Shown: piece by piece, positions 12,825 to 42,769 of the stretch | How positions within the stretch are numbered: the first letter of the stretch is position 1 | Layout of the letters: every line of letters begins with the position of its first letter | Source of the DNA: Verrucomicrobiota bacterium | GTDB taxonomy: Bacteria > Verrucomicrobiota > Verrucomicrobiia > Verrucomicrobiales > Akkermansiaceae | Assembly: GCA_004294095.1 (NCBI GenBank) | Contig: RDZR01000026.1 | Location: 16,411-80,410 of the forward strand | Direction of reading: 5' to 3' | Length of the DNA stretch: 64,000 bases | The notes under the pieces: generated by a model | What the model saw: only the letters and a program-made list of their open reading frames with translations | Told to the model about the DNA's origin: nothing | The model's database searches: none | Translations under genes and position numbers: made by a program

Positions 12825-12829
12825 CCATT

Positions 12830-13447
12830 ATGTTTACCGGCCTCATCGAAGCCATTGGCGCGGTGCGTCACATCCAACAGTTAGGCGAGCAAGCAAAACT
12901 CAGCCTCGATTTACCATTCCGCGATGAACTCGCACTCGGTGATTCCGTCGCGATCAACGGCTGCTGTCTCACGGTAAGTCGTTTTGCCGAAGATGCCGTG
13001 GAGTTCGATTTGTTAGAGCAAACTTTGCGCGTGACTGCACTCGGATCTCTAACCGCTGGCTCTCACGTCAATCTCGAACGCGCCATGATTCTCGGCGGGC
13101 GCATGGGCGGCCACTTGGTGCAAGGACATGTCGATGGCGTTGGCATCATCGAGAAAATCGAAGCCCGCGGCCAAGATCACATCATCCATGTCCGCCTGCC
13201 GCATGAGATCGCTACCCTCTGCATCGAAAAAGGCTCACTCGCCGTCGATGGCATCTCCCTTACCATCGCCGAGCTCGCCGATACGCTCGCCACATTTTGG
13301 ATCACCCCCCACACATGGCAAATGACCCACCTCGCCCACACCCGCGAACAAAGCCAAGTCAACCTCGAAGCCGATATGCTCGCAAAAATGGTCTATCAAT
13401 TCATGACCGCCCGCCAACTCACGCCAGCGAAAGATCAGAACCCCTGA
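12830..13447 (+). CDS. ribE: Riboflavin synthase alpha chain
   Basis: 'MFTGLIEAIG', 'GDSVAINGCCLTV', 'NLERAM..GGRMGGHLVQGHVDG' and 'GSLAVDGISLTI' form the duplicated lumazine-binding repeats. Confidence 0.93.
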   Translation: MFTGLIEAIGAVRHIQQLGEQAKLSLDLPFRDELALGDSVAINGCCLTVSRFAEDAVEFDLLEQTLRVTALGSLTAGSHVNLERAMILGGRMGGHLVQGHVDGVGIIEKIEARGQDHIIHVRLPHEIATLCIEKGSLAVDGISLTIAELADTLATFWITPHTWQMTHLAHTREQSQVNLEADMLAKMVYQFMTARQLTPAKDQNP

Positions 13448-13768
13448 CCTCATGCGAGTCGGAACGCAGCGAATGTCTTTAAAATCAAGGGGTTTGATCC
13501 TCTGAGCGGTTGGAGATCAAATTTGGTGAAAATGATACCGAAGTCGGCTCGGTGAATGACGACCTCAGCATGCCCCCCAGAGTTACAGGATTGCGCAAGC
13601 CCGTGGCAGTGTGGCAGCTTTGCTCATGCCGAAGATGCAATTGCCCATTTTTCTCCAATGAATCCATCTCATCACGCCGCACCTCGGCTATCAGCGCGAT
13701 GGCATCGTTTACCTCCACGGCATGATGCCCGTTTTCCTTCACCACTGCAATTCGCGGCCTCTTTCAAA

Positions 13769-14032
13769 ATGATCGTCAGCCAGTTCTATATTAACGGCAA
13801 CGCAAAGCAGGCGGAGTTAGTCCGCATGTTCGGCATCCAACCTCTCGCCCTCAAACGTTGGGTAAAAAGATACCGCACCGATGGTCCCAAGGCGTTTTTT
13901 GAAACCTGCCGCAAACGACATCCAACGCCCAAAAAAAGTCTCTGGACCAAGCTCACTCGCCAGACCCAGTCACCGCCCAACCCGCCGCCCCGCGAGGCAT
14001 CGCCGCCACCGACGAAAACAGGCGAGTGCTAG
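13769..14032 (+). CDS. Transposase-type helix-turn-helix fragment (N-terminal DNA-binding part only, low-complexity P-rich tail)
   Basis: 'AELVRMFGIQPLALKRWVKRYRTDGPKAFFE' matches the HTH + 'W..RY...G' pattern of IS630/IS481-type transposase N-termini. No DDE domain follows. It sits at the left island edge. Confidence 0.45.
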   Translation: MIVSQFYINGNAKQAELVRMFGIQPLALKRWVKRYRTDGPKAFFETCRKRHPTPKKSLWTKLTRQTQSPPNPPPREASPPPTKTGEC

Positions 14033-14358
14033 CCAGTCTCGGCAAAATCGCCGACCCCCAATTCGGCAGATGGTATTAACCTAAAAAACTAACGGGGTAA
14101 CATGCGTTTCAAATCAGTATCATCTTAAAGTCACCCCAACTCTGCCGAGGTCAGGTGTTCTCAAAATGCCTAACATGCCATGGCTTTAGGCAAGAAATTA
14201 TGCGGCCAGTATTCGTTAGCTGTTTGAATTCACGGCAGATACAATGGCTTCCGCGGAATGTGATTGTTGATCCTCCCGACTAACTTGAATGTCATGCGGC
14301 GGTGGGACAGAACGATTAGTAAGGTGGTCATTCCGCGCAGGGAAGCATGACCCATTCC

Positions 14359-15609
14359 TCAATTCTGTTTGGCCACGTTTGCGTCGACAATTCGGAGAAC
14401 CACTCTCCGGTTTGCGGATGGCGAGCCCTCCTGTGGCCTCACATACAAAGGCCTGGAGGATCCATGACCGATCGCAGAGACGCGACTGGCGTCTACGCCA
14501 GAGCGAATCAAAGCGTCACGCACAGAACCCGCCCGTCTTTCAGAGAGCCGTTGGTTGTGTTGTGCAGTACCTTCCGCTGATGTGTGACCCTCCACCACAA
14601 ACTTTGTAAATTGATAGCTTGGGTCGCGGAGCGCGGCTGCCGCTGACTCCAGCAGGGGAGTGCTTTCCTCACGAATTTTGGCAGAATCGAGATCGAAAAT
14701 GATCAGTAACGATACCTCCCTCAACGCTTTGAGGGACTCTCTTATCCCATCGGTTTGCTTAGGTTCCGGGGCCGCAGGTGCCGACGGCATGCTTGGCTGT
14801 CTTACAACCCGCACTGATCTTGTCGGAGCAACCCGCATTTCGACGGTTGTGTCCTGAGAATCCAAAGCGACTGGGCGCTCTGTGGCAAGTGAGCCATACT
14901 GGATCGAGGCACCCTGCCCTTGTATCCAGGCCGTGACGAATCTACGCACTGACGCTCTGTGGATGTCGTTCATGAAATCTGCGTCCACCGAGGTGTCATT
15001 CCACACAACACTGACATTGGATAACAGATCTCCCCTCGTGGCGAACGGCGTCTCATTGATTGTGGCTTGAAGATGCCCATCACTGGGAAAACGGCCTTCG
15101 TTGAAGGAAAACGCGGGCTCCTCACTATCCTGATTGAGCGTAGAGGAAGTGATCATCACCCTGCGAGTGTCGCTAGACATGTTTTCCCTGATTAGCGTGA
15201 ACAATTTCGGCAGGCTAATGATGGGTGCTTGATCATTAGCTATGGCTTTGATCAATTTCATAGCCGCGGCGACTTCCTCGTTAGCGGAAGCAAGGTCAAC
15301 CCTGTTTTCACCCGACTGCAATGCGAGCTGAGGCGTAATTGTGAACGCCGCAGTGCTCGCCAAAGGACCAGAAATCAAGGTGATCGTATCTCCGGCACCA
15401 CCGTTAATCAGGCAATCTTTCCATTGTTTAAAACTGATCGCCCTTGGCACTGTCTCATTAAAGACCAGCAGAACACTTCCCTGTGCAGGAGTTGCCTTGG
15501 CGTTATCATGATCCTTGCCACCACAGGAAACCATGAAGAGTGACGCTGCGGCGATGAGCAATGTAGTGATGCTGGTTTTCATAGGGGTTGTGGTGGTTTG
15601 TTGATTCAT
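14359..15609 (-). CDS. OmpA-domain lipoprotein (peptidoglycan-binding C-terminus, unknown N-terminal domain)
   Basis: Lipobox-like 'LLIAAASLFMVSCGG'. The C-terminus 'FDLDSAKIREES...VEGHTSAEGTAQHNQRLSERRAGSVRDAL' is the canonical OmpA_C motif. The start is ambiguous (15582, 15609 or the TTG at 15627). Confidence 0.8.
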   Translation of the reverse strand: MNQQTTTTPMKTSITTLLIAAASLFMVSCGGKDHDNAKATPAQGSVLLVFNETVPRAISFKQWKDCLINGGAGDTITLISGPLASTAAFTITPQLALQSGENRVDLASANEEVAAAMKLIKAIANDQAPIISLPKLFTLIRENMSSDTRRVMITSSTLNQDSEEPAFSFNEGRFPSDGHLQATINETPFATRGDLLSNVSVVWNDTSVDADFMNDIHRASVRRFVTAWIQGQGASIQYGSLATERPVALDSQDTTVEMRVAPTRSVRVVRQPSMPSAPAAPEPKQTDGIRESLKALREVSLLIIFDLDSAKIREESTPLLESAAAALRDPSYQFTKFVVEGHTSAEGTAQHNQRLSERRAGSVRDALIRSGVDASRVSAIGHGSSRPLYVRPQEGSPSANRRVVLRIVDANVAKQN

Positions 15610-15648
15610 ATTGGCTATGCGTGACAAAAAGAGTCCTGCGCGTGATAA

Positions 15649-16740
15649 CTACGCACGCTCCTGAAGACCATAATGGTAGATGGTGATACCTTCAGAGATG
15701 AAAAGGTCTCGCTCATGCTGGATCATCTGAAGACGCCCCTCGGCACTACCATGCTGGTTTGCCCTATCATGGAAATCGACATGAAGTTTATCCAAATCTC
15801 TTTTTACATTACCGTGGTGAGGATTCTTGATTTTTCCACTGTGATACCGTTTTGTAAGCATGAGGATCACACAGGATAGCGAAAGGGCTCCGGCGCTCAG
15901 CTCAAACAAGATCCACTTTTGTGTCAAATTACCACCCCGCATCAATTCGGATACGGATTCTTCCGGTGCTATTGCCAGCTTTTGTTCGGCCGTTAGTCCG
16001 TTGCGGACAGTCATAACTCCAAGTCCAAGAATGAAATTGCCGAAAGCAAAAGCAAATGGGATCAAGATCAATACGAGCAGCAGTTTCTTGAACCGATTGC
16101 TGGTTACAATATGCAACAAAACCTCCCCAACCATTCCGGCGATTAACAGAATCGCTCCCATGCCGTAGGTAAGAAACGGGTGATTGGTAAAAAGTGGTGA
16201 GTGAGTACCCTCGAAATGGGCCTTCATCGTTAACGGCGATAAAATCACCAGAATCGCGAGTGCCACAGCAGGAATGACCAGCATTATCCAATCTCCCGGG
16301 GTGAATGGCTTCTTTTCTACGTCGTCATTCAAAAACTGCGGCGTATTTGCAAGCTCCTTTGAGACGCGGAGCAATTCCTTCCTTGTTGCCAAACAGTTGC
16401 TCTTTTTGACTTCAGTGATTCTTGTAAGCGGCCCGACTAGCGGTGCGTAGTGCCGGTCAAAGACGGAACTCACAATCGCTTTGACGTTTTCAACGCTTCC
16501 GCTCTTATTCACGACCTGTTGCTGGATCGCGGCATACGGCATCATCGGCTTTTCATAAGTCTGATAGAAACGCTCGAAAGTATCTTTGTCGGGGATGCTT
16601 GAAGGCAAATAATCGACTTCGATTTGATCATCATCCGTATCAACAGCATCAGATGCACCACCCACAGAGTTTGTGACTTCACTGAGATCTTCAGTATTGA
16701 GATCGGCTTCTTTGTTCGCGTTGTTTTTCTGAGTGCTCAT
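15649..16740 (-). CDS. Hypothetical 4-TM membrane protein (acidic N-terminal cytoplasmic domain, C-terminal helical tail)
   Basis: A 363-aa ATG-initiated ORF with four clear hydrophobic helices between about aa 150 and 290. I recognise no family. Confidence 0.6.
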   Translation of the reverse strand: MSTQKNNANKEADLNTEDLSEVTNSVGGASDAVDTDDDQIEVDYLPSSIPDKDTFERFYQTYEKPMMPYAAIQQQVVNKSGSVENVKAIVSSVFDRHYAPLVGPLTRITEVKKSNCLATRKELLRVSKELANTPQFLNDDVEKKPFTPGDWIMLVIPAVALAILVILSPLTMKAHFEGTHSPLFTNHPFLTYGMGAILLIAGMVGEVLLHIVTSNRFKKLLLVLILIPFAFAFGNFILGLGVMTVRNGLTAEQKLAIAPEESVSELMRGGNLTQKWILFELSAGALSLSCVILMLTKRYHSGKIKNPHHGNVKRDLDKLHVDFHDRANQHGSAEGRLQMIQHERDLFISEGITIYHYGLQERA

Positions 16741-16819: not shown

Positions 16820-16850
16820 GATTCTGTTGCCAGGCTCACAGTGCCCCGAT
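16820..16850 (-). repeat. Copy 1 of the conserved leader/promoter motif (minus-strand sense ATCGGGGCAC-N3-GAGCCTGGCAACAGAATC)
   Basis: The 18-nt core GATTCTGTTGCCAGGCTC is identical in all three copies, and GTGCCCCGAT is conserved. It lies 80 nt upstream of the ATG at 16740. Confidence 0.8.
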
Positions 16851-16873: not shown

Positions 16874-16891
16874 CTAGCCAAAGTCTCCCAT
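16874..16891 (-). CDS. Mini-ORF MGDFG* with its own Shine-Dalgarno (AAAGGAG at 16900-16906)
   Basis: Minus-strand sequence ATG GGA GAC TTT GGC TAG. Its paralog at 17981-18004 keeps the peptide while all four third positions differ. It overlaps the 3' end of the 108-aa ORF 16874-17200. Confidence 0.45.
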   Translation of the reverse strand: MGDFG

Positions 16892-17200
16892 AGTATTTTC
16901 TCCTTTCATAAGTATTGCATGACAGAATTGGGAACCACCGTGACGGAGTTCGTCTCGGGATTGCGAACCCGAAGTAACGAGCGGTTTGTTTCCAACTAGT
17001 TTCACGTCGAAGTGCTCGACGTGCCCATCCATGTGGTGGATCTCGGCGAACTCATCGGGCTTGGCTATGCAGAGCTTGACGCCGCTCCAATAAGCCTTTG
17101 CTGCTGGATTGCTACGAGTCATGGTGATGCTGGCTTTCATGGCAGAGGCTGACTGGATCTTCTTGCGAGAGTAGCTTTTGATTTTCACTCTGGTGCTCAA
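16874..17200 (-). CDS. Hypothetical 108-aa ORF (TTG start); reality uncertain
   Basis: An ORF sits at the position expected downstream of repeat copy 2, 76 nt from the motif. There is no family match and no convincing SD. Its last 5 codons coincide with the conserved mini-ORF. Confidence 0.35.
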   Translation of the reverse strand: MSTRVKIKSYSRKKIQSASAMKASITMTRSNPAAKAYWSGVKLCIAKPDEFAEIHHMDGHVEHFDVKLVGNKPLVTSGSQSRDELRHGGSQFCHAILMKGENTMGDFG

Positions 17201-17275
17201 TGTTTGATGTGTGACTGACTACCCCCCTTCCGTGACGACCTCTGTTTTGGTTCACTCCTCTTTATCGAGATTTTG

Positions 17276-17307
17276 GATTCTGTTGCCAGGCTCCTATGCG
17301 CCCCGAT
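17276..17307 (-). repeat. Copy 2 of the conserved leader/promoter motif
   Basis: The same 18-nt core is followed by CTATGCGCCCCGAT. It lies 76 nt upstream of the TTG at 17200. Confidence 0.8.
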
Positions 17308-17398
17308 GCTGGATTAGTTGATTCGTTATTAATTCTTTATTCTGTATTACCTCCGTTCTTATGATCACTGCGTGACGCTATCCGAGTTTTCCGTGACA

Positions 17399-17869
17399 TC
17401 ATTCGTTTATATGCTTCCATTCCGGTATCGTTAGGAAATGCTCAAATGCGATTGGCCACCCTCCTGATGCACATATCGCATAGTGATAATCTCGTATTTT
17501 CCCATCACGCACGATTGTCTCAGGAGTGTCATCGAGAAATTCGATGCATTCTTCTTGCTTCGAAACCGTTATTCCCAGAGCCGACAAGTTGATCATGCCA
17601 CATTGACAGCAGATTTGAGGTTTGTGCGGCGGAGTTGTATATTCATGCGCCGTGTGGTAATACACGTTAGCAAGTGAAGGCAGTGCGTGAATGCAATCTG
17701 ATGTTCTCGCAGACACATGCAACAAGTCTTTCTTCACTTGACGTAATGCAATGTCTAGTGATGCGCCTTCTATCAAACAGATGAAGTATTTATGCCAAGT
17801 AGGCCGCTCTGGCAGCGTGTAGGAAAATGACACGATCCATTTTTGGTTTCTTTCTGTATGGTTTTTCAT
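17399..17869 (-). CDS. Hypothetical 156-aa protein, paralog of 18089-18550
   Basis: Alignable blocks shared with the 153-aa neighbour: 'FICLIEGASLDIAL' vs 'FLSCLVQGTSLREAL', 'ALPSLANVYYH' vs 'SLPSGAKVYLH', and 'YAICASGG..IAFEHFLTIPE' vs 'YAIRNSDGRIIRLEPFLILPD'. Confidence 0.65.
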   Translation of the reverse strand: MKNHTERNQKWIVSFSYTLPERPTWHKYFICLIEGASLDIALRQVKKDLLHVSARTSDCIHALPSLANVYYHTAHEYTTPPHKPQICCQCGMINLSALGITVSKQEECIEFLDDTPETIVRDGKIRDYHYAICASGGWPIAFEHFLTIPEWKHINE

Positions 17870-17926: not shown

Positions 17927-17958
17927 GATTCTGTTGCCAGGCTCTCTAGTGCCCCGAT
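17927..17958 (-). repeat. Copy 3 of the conserved leader/promoter motif
   Basis: The same 18-nt core is followed by TCTAGTGCCCCGAT. It lies 58 nt upstream of the ATG at 17869. Confidence 0.8.
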
Positions 17959-17980: not shown

Positions 17981-18004
17981 TTAGTCGCCTCCGAAATCGC
18001 CCAT
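17981..18004 (-). CDS. Mini-ORF MGDFGGD* with a strong Shine-Dalgarno (AAAGGAGGA at 18012-18020)
   Basis: Minus-strand sequence ATG GGC GAT TTC GGA GGC GAC TAA, with a 7-nt spacer after the SD. It lies in a 220-bp stretch otherwise lacking any ORF. Confidence 0.45.
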   Translation of the reverse strand: MGDFGGD

Positions 18005-18053
18005 ATTGATGTCCTCCTTTCGTGTGTATTGCGTGACCTCTGGCGAGTTGATC

Positions 18054-18070
18054 GTGACAGCAAGTGTCAC
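18054..18070. promoter_or_regulatory. Inverted repeat GTGACA-N5-TGTCAC just after the stop of 18089-18550
   Basis: Perfect 6-bp arms that share the GTGAC core recurring in all intergenic regions of this sub-cluster. Confidence 0.4.
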
Positions 18071-18088
18071 GTTCCAAATATCCCCATC

Positions 18089-18550
18089 CTAACGAAGGTC
18101 CGGAAGTATGAGGAATGGTTCTAGGCGAATGATTCGACCATCGCTGTTTCGGATCGCGTAGGGATTATCCCGTTTCAACCCATCCGGGATGAGTGGTTCG
18201 GGACAAGTGAAAATCGGAATGATGTCTTCCTCGCAATCGGGAATATCGATGCCGATTGTCTTCATGTCCATAGTGCCACTCATGAATAGGCATGATGCAT
18301 CCGTCGTCATTGCTCCAATCTCGACTGTCTGATGGAGATACACTTTCGCTCCCGAAGGAAGTGAATGCTCATTTTCTTTATCCTCGATATACATCTTTCG
18401 GATCGTAGTCTTGAGCTCTAAGAGGGCTTCACGCAGAGAAGTCCCTTGAACAAGGCACGATAGGAACGTGTTTACCTTGGCATTGTCGGGAGCAACGAGT
18501 GCAAGTTGCGCTAGCCAAATTCTCGACGATTTCGTGGATGGTTTCTTCAT
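18089..18550 (-). CDS. Hypothetical 153-aa protein, paralog of 17399-17869
   Basis: See the paralog alignment blocks above. ATG start at 18550. Confidence 0.65.
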   Translation of the reverse strand: MKKPSTKSSRIWLAQLALVAPDNAKVNTFLSCLVQGTSLREALLELKTTIRKMYIEDKENEHSLPSGAKVYLHQTVEIGAMTTDASCLFMSGTMDMKTIGIDIPDCEEDIIPIFTCPEPLIPDGLKRDNPYAIRNSDGRIIRLEPFLILPDLR

Positions 18551-18671: not shown

Positions 18672-20021
18672 TTATGAAATAGTCCACTCCACTCCGCTTG
18701 GAGGGTGGTAGGACCAAGCACCGCTTGTGGATGAAAGATAAGCTTCGAGGTGTGCAGCAAAGGCGGCGAAACCATTCTCACGTAAGCAGTCTCTGCATCG
18801 ACTCATGCGGGCCCGGAATGCCATTGCCGTTGGCGAATCTTCGCCCCATCCTCCTTGTCTTGACGTGTAATTGCCACCTTGGGGGTGAAGATCATTCTGT
18901 GCCATTTTTGGGATGTCGACCGAAGAGTCCTCTGGTGCGTTCTCTTCGCTTTCATCCGTTGGCACCTCTACTGGCAAATCATTTGCTCCTGACATCCGTG
19001 AGTATTGTTTCTCCGCAATCGAGGCTAAAGGACCAAGCTCGCTAACAATCACAGCGAGCTCCTCTTCTTCATTCGCGGAGAGATCCTCCTCCTCTTCGAG
19101 TTCTCTGAGTTCGACATATCTGGTAAAGCGATGCGCTAGTGCAACCCGAATGAGATTCTCCTGGGCTTCCTCTGACATCTCGTTCCAAGGAACCCCTTTG
19201 GATACGAAGTAGTCCCTGACGGGATCTTCGACTTCCCCAGCATCGCCACTCCCAGCCTGATCGGGCTTTTCGTTTTTTGGTTCGAGGAACAAAGCTGCCT
19301 CTGGATTCAATGACTCGCCACGTTCCATTGACAAAATGTGATGCAACGTCTTGAAGCCGGTTTTGTGCGGAAGTGTCCGGATGTCCCCACAATCGAAGCG
19401 GATTTGCCAATGAAGCGACGTGGTCTCAATGAACTTTCGGGCTCCCTTTTTGTTCTTGTCTTCCTTTGCCGCCTTGACTCGTTCGAGGCTCTTCACTTCG
19501 ATCGGTCTGAAGATGTAACGCAACCTTCCCACCTCGCCGAAAACAAGAGCGATCTGCTCGATGCGATTGTGGAGAAGCGTCTGCGCCTCCTCCTGAGGTA
19601 GAAACCGTGAAGGCTTCTCGACCACCAACAGCCGCTCTGCCGGGAATTTCCGGTAGGCGGCGCTGCGTAAACTCTTCCTCAGCCTATCGCCCTCTTCCGC
19701 ACCCATAATCGTGTCGATACTGGCGTCGGTCTCTACACCAGTCAGCAAGGATACCATCCATGCGGATTGAAATCGTTTCAATGAGGCCAGGACATCGAGG
19801 CCCGACAGGTCGGCATCTCCAAGATTCACGTCCAAAGAGACCAGATCGTAAGGATGCGCTTGGGCCTGCCTGGCCAGATCACGAGCCTCTTCCACCGTGG
19901 ATGCGGTTTCGATCGTGATTGAGGTGTATCCCTGTGCAATGAAAACCTCGCGATAGGTCTTTTTTAAAAGAGCAAGCAAATCGGCTTCGTCTTCAACAAT
20001 GAGCATTCGGATGGATTTCAT
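18672..20021 (-). CDS. Orphan response-regulator receiver protein with a non-canonical output region (REC-A)
   Basis: Receiver signature 'LIVEDE' ... 'DLVSLDVNL' ... 'VSLLTGV' ... 'VVEKPS'. This is followed by 'WQIRFDCGDIRTLPHKTGFKTLHHIL', acidic linkers and a helical C-terminus. It is a paralog of 21995-23401. I chose the ATG at 20021; the track ORF runs to 20168. Confidence 0.8.
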   Translation of the reverse strand: MKSIRMLIVEDEADLLALLKKTYREVFIAQGYTSITIETASTVEEARDLARQAQAHPYDLVSLDVNLGDADLSGLDVLASLKRFQSAWMVSLLTGVETDASIDTIMGAEEGDRLRKSLRSAAYRKFPAERLLVVEKPSRFLPQEEAQTLLHNRIEQIALVFGEVGRLRYIFRPIEVKSLERVKAAKEDKNKKGARKFIETTSLHWQIRFDCGDIRTLPHKTGFKTLHHILSMERGESLNPEAALFLEPKNEKPDQAGSGDAGEVEDPVRDYFVSKGVPWNEMSEEAQENLIRVALAHRFTRYVELRELEEEEDLSANEEEELAVIVSELGPLASIAEKQYSRMSGANDLPVEVPTDESEENAPEDSSVDIPKMAQNDLHPQGGNYTSRQGGWGEDSPTAMAFRARMSRCRDCLRENGFAAFAAHLEAYLSSTSGAWSYHPPSGVEWTIS

Positions 20022-20041
20022 GGAGATTGGGTGGTTTGAAT

Positions 20042-20800
20042 TCAACGCAGCAGTGAGGGAATCTCCCCGCGCAGTGCCTCTGTAACTTCTTGCGTGACGC
20101 CTGTGGTCACAAGCAGTCGAAGGGTGGTTCTGAGCCGATTTCCAGTAGGGTGGCACGGTTGGGAACAAAACAGGTCGAGGTCGTATTCGTTGTCCTCAAA
20201 CACCTTCCGAACTTCCGTTGCAGCCGCAATCATTTCGCTCGCGCTGCCGGAGATTGCAGCCATTTTTAGAGCGGCCAGGGCAATCCGCCGCTTGTCAGCT
20301 CTCCGGCGGCCATTGAAGAAGACGAGATCCTTAGGCACAAGCTTCCCGAGCACCAAAAGCAAATCGGACAAAGACTCGGCTGAACGCCACACGCCATTGG
20401 CATTTGAAACAGGATCCAGAAAGTCCAAAGCCATTCCAGAAGCCAGAGAGGATTCAAATCCAGAGGGCGCGCCGGAAGGCAGGACGTGAATAAAGGCCAG
20501 TTGATGGCAGTCTCCGGCTGGAGAAAGCTTCTCCACCCACTTCCAAACCTCTTCGAAGCCGCTCAAATGATCCGAAGCGGACATCTTCAAGTCGGCCACC
20601 AAGAAGACATGAGTGAGTTCGTCCAGAGGCTTTTTCGAGAATACGCCACCGTCGCCCGGTTCCGGACCTGCCATAATCGACGGGTAGTCCAAGGTCGCGG
20701 CATCAAAAATCAAAGTCAGCGCCCTGGCCATAGGGCCGCTGCCAATCACCAAGGAATGAGGAGGAAAAAGTTCCCAGGATTGAGGAATTGCGGTGGGCAT
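20042..20800 (-). CDS. Hypothetical 'GSGP' protein, partner A (paralog of 23406-24107)
   Basis: 'LVIGSGPMARALTLIFDAA' and 'HVFLVADL' match 'IILGSGPVASVLAQVFDAL' and 'HVFQVATA' in partner B. I chose the ATG at 20800 over the TTG at 20836. No known family. Confidence 0.6.
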   Translation of the reverse strand: MPTAIPQSWELFPPHSLVIGSGPMARALTLIFDAATLDYPSIMAGPEPGDGGVFSKKPLDELTHVFLVADLKMSASDHLSGFEEVWKWVEKLSPAGDCHQLAFIHVLPSGAPSGFESSLASGMALDFLDPVSNANGVWRSAESLSDLLLVLGKLVPKDLVFFNGRRRADKRRIALAALKMAAISGSASEMIAAATEVRKVFEDNEYDLDLFCSQPCHPTGNRLRTTLRLLVTTGVTQEVTEALRGEIPSLLR

Positions 20801-20863
20801 GGGTCTCGGGCTTTTCGAGGAAGGAGTGCTGGGCAATGATGAAAGGAATGAACGTCGCCGTCA

Positions 20864-21457
20864 TCAAAGCACGGAATCAGGCACGGGAACTACCGCTTTT
20901 TTCCAAAAATCCATGGTCTTGGGCTCCAACAAGCCCTCTTCGTGGTCCCCAAACTCCAGGAGAGCATCAAGAAATGAAAGCGCGAGTTCGTGCCTTCCAA
21001 GGAGAGTCATTGACCGCAACATTCGGGTAATCCGCAGCTGATTGTGGTTACCCTTGCGAAGCCACGGATGGTAGTGAAGGGGCCAATTGTCCGATTCGTC
21101 ATATTGGCCAATCACCCTGAAGAGGACTTCTTTCACTTCGGGGCGGGCGGGATCGAGGCCAGGCATAAACCCAAAAAAATTCAGCATCTTGGAAATGGAT
21201 TTTTCGAAATTGTCCTGAAGCTTCGAATAACCAGCATGAGCTGGATCTAGGAAAATTTCCCTAATCTCGTCCGTAAGCACTGGAGCGTGGGGATTGAATC
21301 GACTGCTCACATAGAGCGGGAAAAGCCATTGGATGTAGTCGTGAGTTTCTTCAAGCCAAAGCTTATCCTTGGACAAAATCTCCTCAAGACTCCGCCCCAT
21401 GTGATCAGTGCCTGTGCCGAGGTAGAAATCGAGCAGCAACGTGTCTTCTTCGTTCAT
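20864..21457 (-). CDS. Opioid-growth-factor-receptor (OGFr_N)-like domain protein
   Basis: 'HDYIQWLFPLYVSSRFNPHAPVLTDEIREIF...MLNFFGF' matches the OGFr conserved-region signature (H.(Y/F)IQWLFPL...LT..EI..F). Confidence 0.75.
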   Translation of the reverse strand: MNEEDTLLLDFYLGTGTDHMGRSLEEILSKDKLWLEETHDYIQWLFPLYVSSRFNPHAPVLTDEIREIFLDPAHAGYSKLQDNFEKSISKMLNFFGFMPGLDPARPEVKEVLFRVIGQYDESDNWPLHYHPWLRKGNHNQLRITRMLRSMTLLGRHELALSFLDALLEFGDHEEGLLEPKTMDFWKKAVVPVPDSVL

Positions 21458-21990
21458 CTTAACTCATCCTCTCTGGCGAGAACTAATTCCATTTTGGCAT
21501 GGAGATCCGAAATCGAATCCATTCGGTCCAAAAACATTTTTCCGTCCAAGTGGTCGAGTTCGTGGAGGAAAACCCTTGCGGCGAGGTCGCGCAATTCACT
21601 TTCGATCAGCTCGCCATAACGATTCTGCCAACGGGCCAGAATTTTGGCAGGCCGAGTGATCAATGCTTTGTATCCGGGCATGCTGTAACAGGATTCCCAC
21701 GCCCGGTCGAGCTCTTCGGACTCCGAGAGAACTTCCGGATTGATAACCTCCATGGGCGGAACATCGGGAGCATTAGGGAAAAGTTCTCCTTTTCGCGACT
21801 GCATCACAAACAACCGGACGGATTCATTGACTTGAGGAGCGGCCAAACCGACGCCATTCACTCCGCCCATTGTTGCGAGGAGGTCATTGATAAGAATTTG
21901 AATCCGAGGATCTTCCGGATTGGGCACTTCGGGCGCACGTTCGCGAAGGATTGGATTTCCTATCAGAGCTACTTGGAGGATACGGGACAT
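21454..21990 (-). CDS. def: Peptide deformylase paralog
   Basis: All three PDF motifs are present: 'GVGLAAPQV', 'ESCYSMPG' (an EGCLS variant) and 'HELDHLDG'. There is an ATGA overlap with the OGFr-like gene. Confidence 0.85.
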   Translation of the reverse strand: MSRILQVALIGNPILRERAPEVPNPEDPRIQILINDLLATMGGVNGVGLAAPQVNESVRLFVMQSRKGELFPNAPDVPPMEVINPEVLSESEELDRAWESCYSMPGYKALITRPAKILARWQNRYGELIESELRDLAARVFLHELDHLDGKMFLDRMDSISDLHAKMELVLAREDELR

Positions 21991-21994
21991 TGGC

Positions 21995-23401
21995 TTAATA
22001 AGTGTTCCAGACAATGGATCCCTTTTCTACTGCATAGCAGAACTTGAAGTTACGTATCTTGATATTAGTGAATAGGTGGTCTGCCAACTCCACCTGCCCT
22101 GCCTCTCGGAGTTCGGCGATTGCTCTAGATTTATGTTGTTTGATCGTCTCGTGTGAACGGCCGCCCACGGTATTTCTGCGCACGTCGCCCAATGCCTTCC
22201 GAAGGGCTGCGATCTCGGTTTCGAGTATCGAGCGCAAGCGTCGATTGGCTGAGGCGAGCTGCGCCTCTTTTCGTTGAATTTCCCTTCGATACACGGCATG
22301 CGTTTCCTTAGCCGTGTCATCCGTATTCAGATTTTCCTGGATTGCTCGGTTGTTGTCGTAATCCCTACGATTCCCCCCATTTTCCCTTTGGAATGGATCC
22401 TCGTCGTCATCTTCGCCGTCCTCATCATCTTCGGCGTCTGACATGTCACCATCACCAGGGTTTTGATGAAGGAAGCCGACAGCCTCCTGGCCAATATCAG
22501 CAGCTTCACCACCAATCTGGTGTGCGGCAAACTCTTCATCTGGATGACGCAGCAACCACGCGATCGTTTCAAAATTCGGATTGTCCGGCAGGGAAATCAC
22601 TTCTCCACATCCGAAACTGATCTGCCATAGCGTGACTGTATCATCTGCCCATTGCGCGGGCGCAAGTTTGCTCCCATTCTTCTTCAACATGTCTAACTCT
22701 ATTTCCATTTCGTAGTCGCCTAGGCGTTTCGAATCGGAACAAGTAGAGGGACCTTTGGGGTACTTTTTGTTAAACGCTTTGACAAAATCCATGGCCTTTT
22801 TGGCCCGATTGAACTCTGGCGAGTTTCTTTTGATCCATTGTCCGTCAATCAACTCGTGAACAGCGATCTGGCAAGGCTCCTTCAAGCGACGGAAACGGTT
22901 GCGCCCGATACGACTCTGACGCAGGTACAGACAAACCTGGCGCAAGCGTTTGGCCAGCAGCTCCGTGTTGGATAGATCCGGCTTCTCCCTCACCATCAAT
23001 CGTTCCGGTGGAAAAGTCGCCGATGCACGAGAATGGAGCTCAAATTGGAGGAGTCGCGCCCGGTGCTCTCCGTAAGTGTCGTCCACGGTCGTGTCGCTTT
23101 CCACTCCGGTCAGAATCGAAACCAACCAAGCCGCCTTCCATTGACTAATGATGCCAAGAAGCGCGAGACCGTCGATGGGGTCTTCTGCCGCATCATTGCT
23201 AAAACTGATGTCGAGCGAAATCAGGTCGTAGGGAATCTCCGCTGCGCGACGGATCGCCTCCCGGCACTTCTGGATAGTGTCCGGGGCTTCAATGGTGCAG
23301 GGAAGCTTTAGATCATTGAAAATCTCCAAGAAGTTGCTTTTGATGGCTTGAGCCCATTTGGGTTCGTCTTCGACAATGAGGATGCGGAGAGGTTGTGACA
23401 T
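21995..23401 (-). CDS. Orphan response-regulator receiver protein with a non-canonical output region (REC-B)
   Basis: 'LIVEDEP' ... 'DLISLDISF' ... 'VSILTGV' ... 'MVREKPD'. This is followed by 'WQISFGCGEVISLPDNPNFETIAWLLRHPDEEF', a poly-acidic 'DAEDDEDGEDDDED' stretch, a coiled segment and 'ETIKQHKSRAIAELRE'. Confidence 0.8.
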   Translation of the reverse strand: MSQPLRILIVEDEPKWAQAIKSNFLEIFNDLKLPCTIEAPDTIQKCREAIRRAAEIPYDLISLDISFSNDAAEDPIDGLALLGIISQWKAAWLVSILTGVESDTTVDDTYGEHRARLLQFELHSRASATFPPERLMVREKPDLSNTELLAKRLRQVCLYLRQSRIGRNRFRRLKEPCQIAVHELIDGQWIKRNSPEFNRAKKAMDFVKAFNKKYPKGPSTCSDSKRLGDYEMEIELDMLKKNGSKLAPAQWADDTVTLWQISFGCGEVISLPDNPNFETIAWLLRHPDEEFAAHQIGGEAADIGQEAVGFLHQNPGDGDMSDAEDDEDGEDDDEDPFQRENGGNRRDYDNNRAIQENLNTDDTAKETHAVYRREIQRKEAQLASANRRLRSILETEIAALRKALGDVRRNTVGGRSHETIKQHKSRAIAELREAGQVELADHLFTNIKIRNFKFCYAVEKGSIVWNTY

Positions 23402-23405
23402 AGTC

Positions 23406-24107
23406 TTATGGAGTGAGGATGATCTGGCGAAGGAGCGATTCTCCTTCTACAAACCATTGCGTGACGGGGTCTGTATCCGGGGCGAGAAGCCACTCACGGA
23501 TGCGATTCGCCAACTCATGATCGGCCAGTGGGCAGTATCGCTCCCAGCGGAGTGGCAGTAAGTTGCTCGCAAGCTTCAAAATTCGACTCCGGTTCTCTTC
23601 GGTATGCTCGCCCTTGCAGACTAGCTGGAGAATTTCCTTCCTGAGCGCGACCTGTTCATCAGTGAGTTGGGAATTGAGCCATTCCGTGAACTGATGCGGG
23701 CGCGCCTCGTTGCAGGCTTCGAGAATACTGAATAGGCCTACCTCCACGGAAACTGGGAGGCAATACGGCGAGGGTGTGGCCCCGCATCCTCGGTCGCCAT
23801 GGTGGCAATCGAGAAGCAGCCACTTCAAGCCGGGGTCGCTTTTGATGTCTCTGCCACCCTTCGCGCCATAGAGCCGCCAGAACGCGTCATGCCGCCATCG
23901 CGTCTGCGCTGAAGACTCTGTGGCGGTAGCAACTTGAAAAACATGCCGACAGCCGATCAGTGGTGATTCGAAAGGGGTGGATAGCCCCCACTTCTGCCTG
24001 ATCAGCCGCTCGTCAGGAATCGGCAATGCGTCAAAAACCTGCGCCAGTACGCTCGCCACCGGGCCGGAGCCAAGGATGATTCGTTGTCGATGCGGGCTTG
24101 CGGGCAT
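23406..24107 (-). CDS. Hypothetical 'GSGP' protein, partner B (paralog of 20042-20800)
   Basis: See partner A. 233 aa, with a 4-nt gap to REC-B and a 3-nt gap to the 875-aa gene. Confidence 0.6.
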   Translation of the reverse strand: MPASPHRQRIILGSGPVASVLAQVFDALPIPDERLIRQKWGLSTPFESPLIGCRHVFQVATATESSAQTRWRHDAFWRLYGAKGGRDIKSDPGLKWLLLDCHHGDRGCGATPSPYCLPVSVEVGLFSILEACNEARPHQFTEWLNSQLTDEQVALRKEILQLVCKGEHTEENRSRILKLASNLLPLRWERYCPLADHELANRIREWLLAPDTDPVTQWFVEGESLLRQIILTP

Positions 24108-24110
24108 GAC

Positions 24111-26738
24111 TTAGAAAAGCCGCTTAAACTCTGATCCCGTCAGACACTCATCCCACTTGCTGGCACTTTTACGAAGAAAACGTTCTGCAAGATAGCTGGT
24201 CGCAAGCCTATCGACTGGAGTCAACGAAACGCCACGCATGTGATTGATCGCTTCGACATTGTCTTTCATTGCGCAAGCCCGGAACAAAGAATTGAATGGC
24301 TCCTGAACTACTTGAATATAGCCACTACTAAACCATTCATTTGCCGATGCAGGAAGATCGTTCGGTCGATACAGAGCAATACGAGCTACCCAATCGGCCA
24401 GATAATGGATCTGCTTGGGATCAACCCGGTTTGGGGCAAAAAGCTGATTGCGGACACGCTGCAACATTTGTGGCCCTCGTCGGAAATTGTTGATAATATC
24501 CTCAAAATCGTTCAAAACCGCGCCTCTTGCAGTTCTCACATCTGGTCTTCCATCCAGAACCCCCCGATCTTTCAAGATTCCTCGCACAATCCTGTGAACG
24601 CCATCGCAATCTAAACTAGTATAGTTCCAATTGCCGGCTCGCTCTTTAAACTCTATACCGTAGGCAGCGTGCCAAGTGCTTCGCGTTGCAAAGTCGGCTA
24701 GCTTTTGCTGCCGTGTGGCGGCATGAACATAAACAGCATCAACAGATATATTAATCCATGGGTGCTCAAACAACAGCATCTCAAGGTTCTGCCTTAGCAG
24801 CGTGTGGTAGATGTTGTCCAACGCATTTTCATCGAAGAGAATCGCGCTGTCGATCACCCTGTCGCGGCTGAACCTAAGCAACTCGGGATCAAGAATGGAA
24901 AAGGCTGCAATTCGACTTCCGCTACCCCTCGCAGCATCAATTGCAAGCTGGAAACCCGCGACTTCGTCCTCCGAACCGGGAACTGGTTTTTTAGGAAAGT
25001 AACAAATACTATTGAGTCGATTCTCTCCACCAGGCCGGATTTGGTCAGGTCCGTAGTCCGAGACACCCCATTTTCTGGGCGCATGATTGACGGACCGATG
25101 GAATGCTTCCATGGCATCTTTGTTCTCATGTGACACAACAATGCCGCCCACGGAAAAGCCCGGATCCCTTTGATTGAACGGGTCTCCAGACTCGTCGATG
25201 TAGATCTCGATAAACCGCTTTGGACGTCCTGTATTTTCGTTCTCGCAAATCGCCCGATCCAGCCGAAACGAGGCCAAGGCTTTTCGCGTGTCCATAATCT
25301 TGCAAGCATGATCGACAGCCGAGGAAAAATCCGACCTAATCTCGCCCACCATCTCGCTCCATGAACTACATAGTCCAGCGAGAATCGGCTTACGGAAGGT
25401 GGTGATGATATTTCCATAATCACGGAAAGGGGCAATCAATTCGCTGCGGTGGGTAGATGAAAAAACGATGATTGGCAGCGTTGGATCAATCAGTGCGACC
25501 AATCGTGGCAATAGCGTTTCGTCGGTGTTGGCCGCGTTAAGTTCGGCCAACAATGCCTGTTTTCCCTCTATCGTCACCCAAGGAAGATTCCTAGTTGAGT
25601 TCAAGAGAGTCCGGCCTAAGTCCTCAAGTTGAGATTGGAACTCCCTACCTAACTCCAAGCGAAGATCCAACAGAAGAACGAAATTCGAGTCGGCATGATG
25701 TGGTTCGCCAGTCAAATCAGACGGGTTGAGTGGTTTTTCGCTGGCTATCACAGCCGTGAGACGTTCGCAGAGGTTGCCCATTTTTGCGGGAAACTCTCGT
25801 GAGGGGATAGTGATGAATTCCGAGCTCCCCTCCCTGATCAGTCCGAAGGCAAACTGAACAAACCAGCTCCAAAGATCGGCCATATCGTCAATCATGACAA
25901 TCGAGGAAAACGCTTGCTGTTGTTGCTCAGAGATCCACCACTGAGAATTAGCATCGTTGTCATCTGCGAGCCTATTCGTGTTGGATTTGACTCCGCAAGC
26001 CGTAGCCAACTCCAAGAGGTAAGGAGCGATGGGGAAGTGCGTATTGAGTTGATTGACAAATTCAGAAATACACCCCGGAGCGGCTTGAAAGGGCAGTAAG
26101 AAAGCCCCAAGAACATTGCTCAAGGCGTGATGCTGCTCGCGGTTGGAGGTGAGTTCGCTCCAGATGGTGGATTTAAGGAGGCCACAGAGATGGGGCGTGT
26201 CTTTGAACATACTGCGCTTATCTAATTTGGAATCAGAAAGCCACTTGCAGATCGCTTCCAAGCCGGGAGCATTCAAGACTGCGGCACGGGGGACGAGGGG
26301 CTGGCCCAAGACGTTGCGGGCACCAAGGATCGTCTGCAGCGCACGCGCCGTGCCGCTGGCGGGGCACAGCTCCTGAGGGTCGATGACAGCGATAGCAGCT
26401 TTAGCATCAGGAAACTTCACTTTCCAGGCGGCAAGCCAAGAGGTGGCGGTGAAGTGATCGCGGAAGTTTATCTTCGTGAGGCTGGGAACATCCGTTTCAA
26501 AGACTCCATCCGGCGGATGGTTGCCTATGATCAGGATTTGCTTATACGCATCAGTGAGGTCAATTTCTCGTCCACAAATGGTTGACTTGCCAGTTTCGAG
26601 AGCCTGTATCCAGAGGGCAGAGAAGGTAATCGTGTCGTTGTAGTCGAGAAGAGAGATAGCTGGATTCGCTGTCTTCCCGGGGCCGTGTAGGATCCGCCCG
26701 AGAGCCTCGAAGAATGGTGATGTCTCGATGTTCTTCAT
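24111..26738 (-). CDS. 875-aa multidomain protein: unknown N-terminal domain + receiver-like domain + DUF3800-like C-terminal domain
   Basis: The central region carries 'VMIDDMAD' ... 'VLLLDLRLE' ... 'IIVFSSTH' ... 'TTFRKP', the receiver D-D/D/S-T/K-P pattern. The C-terminal region starts with 'IEIYIDESGDPF' and contains 'QIHYLADWVA', like DUF3800 (from memory). Confidence 0.6.
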   Translation of the reverse strand: MKNIETSPFFEALGRILHGPGKTANPAISLLDYNDTITFSALWIQALETGKSTICGREIDLTDAYKQILIIGNHPPDGVFETDVPSLTKINFRDHFTATSWLAAWKVKFPDAKAAIAVIDPQELCPASGTARALQTILGARNVLGQPLVPRAAVLNAPGLEAICKWLSDSKLDKRSMFKDTPHLCGLLKSTIWSELTSNREQHHALSNVLGAFLLPFQAAPGCISEFVNQLNTHFPIAPYLLELATACGVKSNTNRLADDNDANSQWWISEQQQQAFSSIVMIDDMADLWSWFVQFAFGLIREGSSEFITIPSREFPAKMGNLCERLTAVIASEKPLNPSDLTGEPHHADSNFVLLLDLRLELGREFQSQLEDLGRTLLNSTRNLPWVTIEGKQALLAELNAANTDETLLPRLVALIDPTLPIIVFSSTHRSELIAPFRDYGNIITTFRKPILAGLCSSWSEMVGEIRSDFSSAVDHACKIMDTRKALASFRLDRAICENENTGRPKRFIEIYIDESGDPFNQRDPGFSVGGIVVSHENKDAMEAFHRSVNHAPRKWGVSDYGPDQIRPGGENRLNSICYFPKKPVPGSEDEVAGFQLAIDAARGSGSRIAAFSILDPELLRFSRDRVIDSAILFDENALDNIYHTLLRQNLEMLLFEHPWINISVDAVYVHAATRQQKLADFATRSTWHAAYGIEFKERAGNWNYTSLDCDGVHRIVRGILKDRGVLDGRPDVRTARGAVLNDFEDIINNFRRGPQMLQRVRNQLFAPNRVDPKQIHYLADWVARIALYRPNDLPASANEWFSSGYIQVVQEPFNSLFRACAMKDNVEAINHMRGVSLTPVDRLATSYLAERFLRKSASKWDECLTGSEFKRLF

Positions 26739-27466
26739 GGCCGAAGTGTATTAAGGAAATCCAGTTTCTCGGAGAGCGCCTTGGATGCGGATACCAGATT
26801 TTGCCCGCTCTTTGACGCTTTTACGACCTCCGCCGCCAATTTGGTGAGATCGTCCGGTGGTTTAACAATCGTGATGCGGTTGCATTCTTCTGTCTCGATT
26901 CCAGACGCCTCCATCAAAAGCCTTGCAGCCATAACTACCTCGTTGAGCCATGCGATGTCGGTTGATGCGCATGCACCTGCCTCGTCCCGAAGTGTCCGGA
27001 GCACTTGAAGCTCTTGATTCACAACTTGTTTTAGGAAATCCGCGTCGCATCGAGGAGGCAGAACGCCTGCATAAAATCTGACACGTAAAGACGGATAGCC
27101 TTCCAGTGGTCCTCCTTTACCAGTTGCGGCTAAACACCACTCGCTTCTTGTTGCCAATTTTGTGTCGCCCCCAGAGTAAAGAATAACGTAAGGCTCGGAA
27201 CCCGCCGGGCAATTCCTCAGGCACTTTATAAACCCTTGAATCTGGACAGAGTGCGAGTACTCGTTCTCCCAGTTCGTTAGAGTAAGGTCAGGATGTTCAC
27301 CTCGCTCATGCTCGTGTGTATGAGCGAAGACAAGATCAACTGGATCGAATGTTGGTGGGAAACTGCTGTCATGCTCGTGTGCAAAAACAATCTCAGTCAG
27401 ACCACCAGTGGGAAATGCATTCTTCCACGCTTCAACGCGACAGGTATCAATAATGTAGATCTTCAT
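26735..27466 (-). CDS. Hypothetical 243-aa protein (possible degenerate flavodoxin/receiver-like N-terminus)
   Basis: An ATG ORF with an ATGA overlap onto the 875-aa gene. The strand pattern 'KIYIIDT', 'DLVFAH', 'YVILYSGG' is suggestive only, and there is no K-P. Confidence 0.5.
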   Translation of the reverse strand: MKIYIIDTCRVEAWKNAFPTGGLTEIVFAHEHDSSFPPTFDPVDLVFAHTHEHERGEHPDLTLTNWENEYSHSVQIQGFIKCLRNCPAGSEPYVILYSGGDTKLATRSEWCLAATGKGGPLEGYPSLRVRFYAGVLPPRCDADFLKQVVNQELQVLRTLRDEAGACASTDIAWLNEVVMAARLLMEASGIETEECNRITIVKPPDDLTKLAAEVVKASKSGQNLVSASKALSEKLDFLNTLRP

Positions 27467-27470
27467 GTTT

Positions 27471-34562: not shown

Positions 34563-34587
34563 GGGCGTGACAGGATCGGTCACGCCC
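34563..34587. promoter_or_regulatory. Perfect palindrome GGGCGTGAC-N7-GTCACGCCC, 28 nt upstream of the symporter ATG
   Basis: 9-bp perfect arms with the same CGTGAC core seen upstream of the other island transcription units. Confidence 0.55.
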
Positions 34588-42717: not shown

Positions 42718-42769
42718 GTCGTTCAAATTATCGGGATTTGTTGGAAAAGGCAAATGGCGAAACAGCTTC

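Follow-up and report, generated by a model that had tools for sequence, protein, structure and literature searches.

What controls a response regulator that comes without a histidine kinase, and what might it control in turn? The question is raised by a 64,000-nucleotide (nt) stretch of contig RDZR01000026.1 from a Verrucomicrobiota bacterium (the window, with positions numbered from its first letter). Two regulators, R1 and R2, are encoded there, each behind a gene for a partner protein that we call GSGP. All four open reading frames (ORFs) are present on the minus strand: GSGP1 (23406-24107, 233 amino acids (aa)), followed 4 nt past its stop codon by R1 (21995-23401, 468 aa), and GSGP2 (20042-20800), followed by R2 (18672-20021, 449 aa). 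GSGP2 is 252 aa long when read from the ATG at 20800, and a TTG at 20836 is an alternative start. The R2 start, the ATG at 20021, is backed by homologue alignment. Both regulators carry a receiver and a split, winged-helix-like output, and R2 represents the commoner type.

The pair of partner and regulator is a real, conserved signaling or regulatory unit of unassigned type. The two pairs in the window belong to an ancient set of paralogues within a three-gene core. As to function, the chances seem about even that R1 and R2 are transcription factors with a derived OmpR/PhoB winged helix, each controlled by its GSGP partner, a reading in which we infer DNA binding. The evidence for it, and the explanations that compete with it, are set out below.

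The conserved unit of partner and regulator

R1 and R2 are paralogues (BLASTP E=4e-29), with 28% identity across the receiver and a 'WQI.F.CG' block. The pairwise similarity of GSGP1 and GSGP2 is weak (E=1e-4; N-terminus, 'GSGP' and 'HVF.VA'), and family alignments unite the two securely. The initial annotation had described two paralogous pairs in the same order, which agrees with our comparison of these minus-strand genes. It had also called them a tandemly duplicated two-gene module, and this description needs revision on both counts. Two genes separate the pairs, and each type has its own orthologues elsewhere. Orthologues within a type are 50-58% identical across genomes, compared with ~28% between types, and the duplication is consequently old. 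Judged from these identities, the two types split before the genomes now carrying them, and no recent tandem duplication took place. R1- and R2-type pairs also lie side by side in the metagenomic loci L002/L003, and GSGP2 orthologues (26-38% identity) precede every R2-type regulator in L002 and L005-L010. Moreover, the unit usually comprises three genes and sits inside a larger island. The usual first gene encodes an 875-aa protein (24111-26738, minus strand; family C2), and GSGP1 starts 3 nt past its stop codon.

In a set of 5.8 billion protein clusters, R1 has only 14 relatives at E<=1e-3, named just 'CheY-like' or 'hypothetical'. Relatives of GSGP1 form 11 clusters at the same threshold, none of them named. 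Gene-context look-ups, together with a scan that covered one genome for each species, yielded 14 related loci (L001-L010, L023, L024, L026 and L027), of which 12 are distinct, since L003 duplicates L002 and L027 duplicates L026. The hosts are Verrucomicrobiota (Brevifollis, Phragmitibacter and others), Phycisphaerales, Hydrogenedentes and unclassified metagenome contigs.

Wide co-occurrence of the GSGP protein with the receiver protein had been proposed as a check on the pairing, and it is borne out. In 14/14 loci (12 distinct), the gene immediately before the regulator encodes a GSGP protein, and the stop and start codons often overlap. The partner types match as well: a G1-type gene always precedes an R1-type regulator, a G2-type gene precedes an R2-type regulator, and a third type pairs in L004. 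The order 875-aa homologue, GSGP, R is found in 10 of the 12 distinct loci. The homologue stands directly upstream of GSGP and R in L001, L002, L003, L005-L010, L023 and L024, and it is split in two genes in L002, L003 and L006. It is absent in L026, and none is present on the short contig of L004.

Receiver domains

R2 scores 35.0 bits against the Pfam model PF00072 (Response_reg; cutoff 30.2), and R1 alone scores 19 bits. A profile of the receivers of the R family matches E. coli receivers in hhalign at 98% (E=1.8e-13). The residues E11/D12, D64 ('SLD'), T98 ('LTG') and K140-P141 ('EKP') are invariant in 14-15 homologues, in agreement with the canonical receivers described initially. In the AlphaFold2 model of R1 (overall predicted local distance difference test score (pLDDT) 73; mostly 73-89 over residues 1-140 and ~60 at 101-110), the receiver adopts the (beta/alpha)5 fold, and Foldseek matches it to the ComE receiver (template modeling score 0.82 to target) and to Rcp1. 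We regard the receivers of R1 and R2 as genuine, with their phospho-acceptor residues complete; presumably, they can be phosphorylated.

The fact that the phospho-acceptor residues are all intact would equally suit ordinary two-component regulators whose kinases are encoded elsewhere. GSGP would then be a co-transcribed accessory protein or target that exerts no control over the receiver. Orphan regulators with distant kinases are common, and the window does hold a histidine kinase, at 40244-42022. However, this kinase, the nearest one in the window, has its own adjacent OmpR-type regulator (42019-42885). No histidine kinase was found within ~15 kb of the pairs, nor was one (HisKA/HATPase_c) found in the 14 related loci over +/-10 kb where the contig permits. 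The receivers are locally orphan, as had been claimed: no cognate kinase that would complete a two-component pair is encoded with R1/R2, either in the window or in the scanned loci. In addition, the adjacency of GSGP and R, the overlap of their start and stop codons, and their co-divergence in three types across three phyla exceed what would be expected of a passenger gene. We consider distant kinases with a passive GSGP rather unlikely.

Output module

The output region of R1 and R2 (~300 residues) gave only sub-threshold, non-recurring matches in Pfam, NCBIfam, PADLOC and the PDB sequences. Its wider family was delineated with an exhaustive hidden Markov model (HMM) search of 1.84 billion representatives, which returned 226 proteins at E<=1e-3. 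A profile made from the output alone found 134 proteins, essentially all of them full-length (~430 aa) with the same receiver and output architecture. The module also occurs behind other N-termini, namely, TPR repeats in P0205 and unassigned sequence in P0210, P0232, P0240, P0267, P0273 and others. The initial annotation had linked a 'W.I.F.G...LL..P' block to other regulators, and its presence in receiver-less proteins, one with TPR repeats, bears this out.

The module consists of two conserved blocks, 'W.[IV]R[FY].G.E...L.D..G...[IL]A.LL..P...F....L' and '..R..[IV]..R.I..LRE.G...LA.HL...I......Y.P....W', with 110-190 variable residues between them. The inter-block stretch is predicted to be disordered and acidic at first and then to form a helical hairpin. 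In the R1 model, the part beyond the receiver comprises a disordered acidic segment (302-362), a helical hairpin (361-406), terminal helices (417-446) and then a beta-hairpin.

On visual inspection, the two blocks look like the halves of an OmpR/PhoB winged helix, and this resemblance was examined with the blocks joined and the insertion excised. An alignment of 36 family members was compared with nine OmpR-family DNA-binding domains, eight from E. coli K-12 and one from the window regulator at 42019-42885. The spliced module aligned to these domains in hhalign at 78% (P=1.7e-5, score 32.8, 65 columns) and in the expected register, which matches the beta-sheet, helix 1, helix 2 and recognition helix of OmpR-type domains. 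The controls scored 9.9 for the reversed template, <=14.9 for 39 column shuffles and 11-17 for unrelated real families. Disjoint subsets of the family recovered the same register, both for receiver-containing members (P=5.8e-4) and for receiver-less members (P=9e-6). A profile search of the PDB (177,635 sequences) ranked the AdeR DNA-binding domain first, again in this register, at a non-significant E=0.34.

The output is probably an OmpR-class winged helix in derived form, with a long insertion in place of the loop that joins helices 2 and 3. This loop is the one that contacts RNA polymerase in OmpR and PhoB. The domain would be a variant and no standard OmpR member because it fails the Pfam test and an additional conserved helix precedes its wing. 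The output had been described initially as unusual and outside the standard families. It is unusual in that it reaches no curated family cutoff, but it aligns to OmpR/PhoB domains, so a new fold is unlikely. The spliced output nevertheless appears too derived, and in its native form too interrupted, for a standard member of that family. The NarL/FixJ family offers no alternative, as GerE-type helix-turn-helix domains were unmatched at E<=0.1 with the native proteins and at E<=10 with the spliced constructs.

Several observations speak against a DNA-binding output. Native R1 and R2 do not match the Pfam model PF00486 (Trans_reg_C; cutoff 26.2 bits), and the best spliced construct stays below the cutoff as well (12.1 bits, E=0.21). 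The splice points were chosen by hand by the analyst. Foldseek with the whole R1 model found only receiver matches. Furthermore, the 'LA.HL' helix hardly varies in the wider family, an odd property for a part that determines specificity, and the R1 and R2 types differ strongly in the putative recognition helix, yet they are associated with the same GTCACG boxes.

Part of this evidence could be accommodated by a post-receiver module that acts as a coiled-coil scaffold or protein-interaction domain and binds no DNA, its likeness to OmpR being spurious. The hhalign value is just 78%, and the Pfam and PDB sequence searches were non-significant. The near-invariance of the 'LA.HL' helix and of the terminal Y/W would be as expected for a structural or protein-binding surface. 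Conversely, two disjoint subsets and an independent PDB search arrive at one register, while all controls are low. The predicted order of beta-sheet, helix, helix, insertion, helix, helix and beta-hairpin fits a winged helix. A weak match of Sigma70_r4 to the putative recognition helix, covering the last helix only and obtained with the R1 spliced construct alone (E=0.011, 15.7 bits; cutoff 24.1), also hints at DNA binding. A pure scaffold appears improbable to us.

Some receiver-less relatives lie in settings of their own. P0240 adjoins a phage-type integrase. In L021 (3391-10350), P0232 is encoded between a LexA-like S24 repressor with a 388-aa protein on one side and a 1269-aa SIR2_2 protein on the other. 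The P0232 group stands beside a serine recombinase and resembles a mobile defense cassette. No relatives of the output module were found in viral contigs.

The GTCACG motif

The initial annotation had suggested CGTGAC sites as binding targets of the C-terminus. As a single hexamer, CGTGAC is not significantly enriched across the window (33 sites versus 24.8 +/- 4.9 expected). As pairs spaced by 21 nt, on the other hand, the hexamers are highly non-random. The window holds two exact copies of the direct repeat GTCACG-N15-GTCACG and three with one mismatch, all on the sense strand and between 15.6 and 18.1 kb, a short way downstream of R2. These five boxes compare with 0.26 expected by chance at <=1 mismatch, and none of 100 shuffles reached five.

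All five lie on the minus strand. The first is part of a longer element, CGTGAC-N7-GTCACG-N15-GTCACG (18032-18071), which combines a palindrome with an exact box and stands upstream of a mini-ORF and of the gene for a 156-aa protein. The second exact box is at 17371-17397. The one-mismatch boxes are GTCACG-N15-GTCACA (17210-17236), GTCACG-N15-GTCATG (16918-16944), upstream of the mini-ORF MGDFG and a gene for a 363-aa membrane protein, and ATCACG-N15-GTCACG (15620-15646), at the head of an OmpA-family gene (14359-15627). A homologue of the OmpA-like protein is encoded two genes downstream of the box in L010.

Exact boxes recur elsewhere. Five distinct loci (L001, L002, L007, L009 and L010) hold 11 of them, or 13 in six loci when the duplicate L003 is counted, and all are intergenic and in the sense orientation. 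Most are located 10-40 nt before start codons, and two at ~200-280 nt. The genes behind them include the conserved C5 and C6.

A second class of sites is embedded in codons. GTCACG spans Val-Thr codons at the 3' end of GSGP1 (23460-23465, minus strand), ~60 nt before the R1 start. At the 3' end of GSGP2, an inverted repeat GTGAC-N8-GTCACG (20093-20110, minus strand; codons VT..VT) precedes the R2 start by ~75 nt. In the GSGP alignment, the 'VT' column reads GTC ACG followed by C in 10/10 genes that have VT (12 aligned), at background usages of 0.25 for GTC and 0.27 for ACG, and the site falls ~60-100 nt before the R start codon. In G2-type genes, the upstream Val-Thr is encoded by GTG ACC, which completes the inverted repeat. 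The fuller palindrome CGTGAC-N7-GTCACG occupies the same GSGP position in L002, L005, L006 and L008. Among further loci, L023 keeps the motif, L024 has GTA ACG and L026 lacks it. The window contains one more perfect palindrome, CGTGAC-N7-GTCACG (34566-34584, no strand assigned), at the 5' end of a sodium:solute symporter gene. This gene heads a long co-directional string of genes that ends with both pairs.

Among the conserved island proteins, no DNA-binding candidate other than R was found. R, as the sole one in these islands, is the protein that we infer to bind the GTCACG sites. This assignment is weakened by the fact that 6 of the 12 distinct loci with a pair have no 21-nt box in the fetched DNA. 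In a motif-first metagenome scan with TGTCACG-N15-GTCACGC (120 loci, 127 matches), none of the first 120 hits came with island genes. However, 82% of the 127 matches lie inside ORFs, so the scan returned mostly chance matches and is uninformative on the link between R and the box. It does provide a background against which the exclusively intergenic boxes of the related loci stand out.

Given how near the boxes lie to start codons, they could also serve as promoter elements or RNA signals. They would then not be bound by R at all, and would act instead as -35/-10-like elements for some sigma factor or as RNA signals for translation. The second hexamer lies 10-40 nt from most start codons, and the start-to-start spacing of 21 nt is near promoter geometry. 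All boxes are on the sense strand, and the palindromes could fold, CGUGAC-N7-GUCACG giving a 6-bp hairpin. The box is identical for R1 and R2, whose putative recognition helices differ. Nevertheless, two identical hexamers are unlike sigma -35/-10 pairs, and tandem dimers of the OmpR/PhoB type classically recognize direct repeats that share one DNA face. Neither a conserved sigma factor nor an RNA-binding protein was found in the island, and the boxes show no Rfam family and no covariation. We find this explanation doubtful, although it deserves more weight than a pure scaffold.

Some of the window boxes belong to a repeated intergenic module. Between 16740 and 18090 on the minus strand, a segment of ~150 nt occurs three times, each copy with a GTCACG box, a strong Shine-Dalgarno sequence and an invariant 18-mer, GAGCCTGGCAACAGAATC (17927-17944, 17276-17293 and 16820-16837), which is preceded by ATCGGGGCAC. 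Two copies contain a mini-ORF, MGDFGGD (17981-18004) and MGDFG (16874-16891), and the middle copy has none. The same layout is seen in L004 (5178-5340), with the mini-ORF MQDS and '..AGCCTGGCAACAGAAG'. For this module, Rfam gave no family, ARAGORN no tRNA, and RNAalifold a 5-bp hairpin without covariation. A match to alpha_tmRNA over one copy of the 18-mer (17269-17366, minus strand) was rejected as probably due to chance, with 21 bits in Rfam against a gathering threshold of 50 and no tmRNA from ARAGORN.

The GSGP partner and a possible mechanism

Neither GSGP1 nor GSGP2 matched Pfam, NCBIfam, PADLOC or the PDB sequences. The AlphaFold2 model of GSGP1 is poor (pLDDT 54.6), with an alpha/beta N-terminal half, which appears to open with a strand-'GxGxxA' motif, and a helical C-terminal half. 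Foldseek with this model returned nothing significant; SLFN14, FabG4, flavodoxin-like and SIS folds were all at E>=0.02. The first alignment of 15 GSGP sequences shows G13, G15, V56, W77, H197, N201, R204, L207 and T212 to be invariant. The possibility that GSGP proteins are a known enzyme, raised at the outset, finds no support in any family, PDB or fold match. A degenerate receiver was also considered and rejected by hhalign, which was likewise negative throughout for a relation to the 243-aa protein encoded upstream (see below), to the 875-aa protein or to other island families.

Because linkage and co-divergence are strict, GSGP is expected to act on or with its own regulator. We propose the following scheme. 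The GSGP gene, immediately upstream and tightly or translationally coupled, would be expressed together with R and would most likely control it, in a unit that includes no histidine kinase. R itself would combine a complete receiver with a winged helix carrying a 110-190 aa acidic and coiled-coil insertion before the recognition helix, and dimers of R would bind GTCAC(G) hexamers. A role as spacer or dimerizer is plausible for the coiled-coil insertion, and the two-turn spacing of the hexamers would suit a dimer held apart.

Three classes of candidate sites can be distinguished. Sites in the last ~100 nt of the GSGP coding sequence could serve autoregulation of R. The palindromes form the second class. 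Direct repeats 21 bp apart (two helical turns), 10-280 nt upstream of neighboring genes, form the third, and the putative targets in the window are the genes for the 156-aa, the 363-aa and the OmpA-like proteins just downstream of R2.

A more far-reaching version can be formulated, which we consider unlikely. GSGP would be a dedicated receiver partner that replaces the kinase, acting as phosphodonor, phosphatase or allosteric switch, possibly gated by a ligand through the GxGxxA alpha/beta domain. R would read hexamers two turns apart, with the inserted coiled coil setting their spacing. The operator embedded in the GSGP codons would fix the Val-Thr codons, and with the putative nuclease gene included the whole would constitute an undescribed kinase-less system.

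The 875-aa protein and the purpose of the island

The 875-aa protein has an N-terminal domain of unassigned type, a central region with a receiver-like order of motifs (DDM / LLLDLRL / IVFSST / FRKP) and a C-terminal DUF3800-like region with the motifs 'IYIDESGD' and 'QIHYLADW'. 'DES(G)' and 'Q.HYLAD' are conserved in the family alignment. The central region was considered as a further receiver; its motif order fits, and the hhalign comparison was not significant. The Pfam model PF12686 (DUF3800; cutoff 21) gives 18.1 bits for the window member only, that is, for 1 of 11 members. DUF3800 is a predicted nuclease with an RNase H-like fold and DE and QxxD motifs, and it has been linked to type VII retrons and to Cas12a2 loci (PMC7736814, PMC10910872).

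In most verrucomicrobial loci, the unit is accompanied by extra conserved genes without an assigned family, C3, C12/13 and C4 upstream and C5, C6, C7, an AAA ATPase and a DegT-like protein downstream. The island often starts right after Opp-like ABC permease genes (BPD_transp_1), as seen at the upstream ends of L001, L007-L010, L023 and L026. SBP_bac_5 is present at the upstream end of L026. No ABC ATPase genes lie between the permeases and the island. In L023, a 1323-aa protein is encoded directly downstream of the regulator (11725-15696). It couples a weak match to a receiver with a TCAD9 kinase-like domain (E=4e-18) and a region resembling glycosyltransferase 3, and it is another kinase-less receiver protein in this type of island.

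Since the island is rare and patchy and the pair usually comes with the large DUF3800-like protein, the pair is probably the control module of an accessory system. This system is possibly one of conflict or defense. Taken further, the three-gene unit itself could be an anti-phage or inter-genomic conflict system, in which a receiver-gated DUF3800 nuclease would be the effector, GSGP the sensor, and R the switch for island genes. The rare and patchy distribution across Verrucomicrobiota, Phycisphaerales and Hydrogenedentes would agree with this idea, and so would the motifs of the 875-aa protein, namely, DE and a Q..D-like motif with the weak DUF3800 match, in view of the association of DUF3800 with retrons and Cas12a2. 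The receiver-less relatives of the module beside a SIR2_2 giant, a LexA-like repressor, a serine recombinase and a phage integrase point in the same direction, as does the TCAD9 kinase-like protein after R in L023.

Conversely, PADLOC finds no match for the island proteins except a trivial AAA, and viral contigs hold no relatives. The DUF3800 score is below the cutoff and limited to one member, profile comparison does not support the receiver-like region, and L026 manages without the 875-aa gene. Many loci also occupy the same site by Opp-like ABC permeases, which resembles vertical inheritance. In detail, PADLOC-DB v2 gave no system match for the pairs, with marginal receiver matches to PDC-M60B/C (E=0.01-0.04) and one methyltransferase match, and among the L007 island proteins it matched the AAA ATPase only. 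Nothing was found in the literature on a receiver combined with DUF3800. A conflict system of this particular build is a tentative idea at best, comparable in weight to the promoter or RNA explanation of the boxes.

Neighboring genes in the window

From at least 30335 down to 18672, the genes abut or overlap and are therefore very likely co-transcribed. Two genes of this string separate the pairs. The first encodes a peptide deformylase (21454-22014, minus strand; Pfam Pep_deformylase E=3e-43); it was not found between pairs in other loci and is probably a passenger. The second encodes a 197-aa protein with an OGFr_N domain (20864-21457, minus strand; Pfam OGFr_N E=9e-14). Homologues of the latter occur in L001 (18922-19455), where the gene comes after a weak dual-specificity-phosphatase-like protein (DSPc, E=0.003), and in L004 (1273-2052), directly upstream of the pair. 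Such a protein is therefore near the pair in three loci, the window included. A literature search found nothing on bacterial OGFr_N in islands of this kind.

Upstream of the 875-aa gene, the interval 26735-30335 (minus strand) encodes a 954-aa protein with an N-terminal S-adenosylmethionine-dependent methyltransferase domain (Methyltransf_31, E=6e-8) and a 243-aa protein. Both hold the positions of C3 and C4 in other loci. They were considered as diverged equivalents of these and rejected, as BLAST, HMM and hhalign comparisons were negative. Just downstream of R2, two paralogous proteins of 153 and 156 aa are encoded on the minus strand (18089-18550 and 17399-17869; BLASTP E=1e-21, 28% identity), the second with a GTCACG box in front. 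Neither matched Pfam, NCBIfam or PADLOC. Farther away, at 35374-38825, the genes for a HerA/FtsK-like ATPase (821 aa) and a 329-aa protein show synteny with L007 from Brevifollis (19029-20702; 39-44% identity), which points to a related verrucomicrobium as the origin of the window.

Relation to known systems

The regulators share with the OmpR/PhoB family a full set of receiver catalytic residues and an output in the OmpR register. Their candidate targets, direct repeats on one DNA face, are of the kind represented by pho boxes. In contrast to this family, R is undetected by the Pfam model. The standard domain is contiguous over ~100 aa, whereas the R output is split; the 110-190 aa insertion replaces the short 'transactivation loop', and an extra conserved 'LA.HL' helix precedes the wing. 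The repeats are spaced by 21 bp instead of 10-11 bp, and an obligate upstream partner gene takes the place of an adjacent kinase.

OmpR-like winged helices also exist outside two-component systems, in SARP/AfsR-type and large TPR/ATPase regulators, and these are reminiscent of the receiver-less proteins described here, one of which (P0205) has TPR repeats. Unlike in those regulators, the module here is C-terminal and always has the long insertion, and no BTAD or AAA domain was detected. The 875-aa protein resembles the DUF3800 proteins of type VII retrons and the TPR-DUF3800 proteins associated with Cas12a2 in its 'DESG' and C-terminal 'Q.HYLAD' motifs and in the weak Pfam match. It differs in that this match is below the cutoff and other members are unmatched, and no retron, reverse transcriptase or CRISPR lies nearby. 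Receiver-coupled defense systems such as Detocs encode a histidine kinase and a phosphotransfer protein. The islands resemble Detocs-like systems in linking receivers with effector or regulatory outputs in a rare accessory setting; they differ in having neither kinase nor phosphotransfer protein and in matching no PADLOC model.

Conclusions

Response regulators are well catalogued, yet the R family joins three oddities: an OmpR-class domain that appears to be interrupted by a coiled-coil insertion at the loop for contact with RNA polymerase, a strictly linked partner without recognizable relatives in place of a kinase, and a short DNA motif kept both in neighboring promoter regions and in codons of the partner gene. 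The family comprises ~150 sequence clusters, mostly from Verrucomicrobiota and allied phyla, in which regulation has hardly been studied experimentally. The partner protein and the motif embedded in coding sequence are the parts that could prove new. If neither partner control nor a role in conflict holds, R would be an unusual yet ordinary orphan regulator. Should the island prove to be a conflict system, it would represent a new regulated nuclease system, and if the partner controls the receiver, the pair would provide a new input mechanism for signaling of the two-component type.

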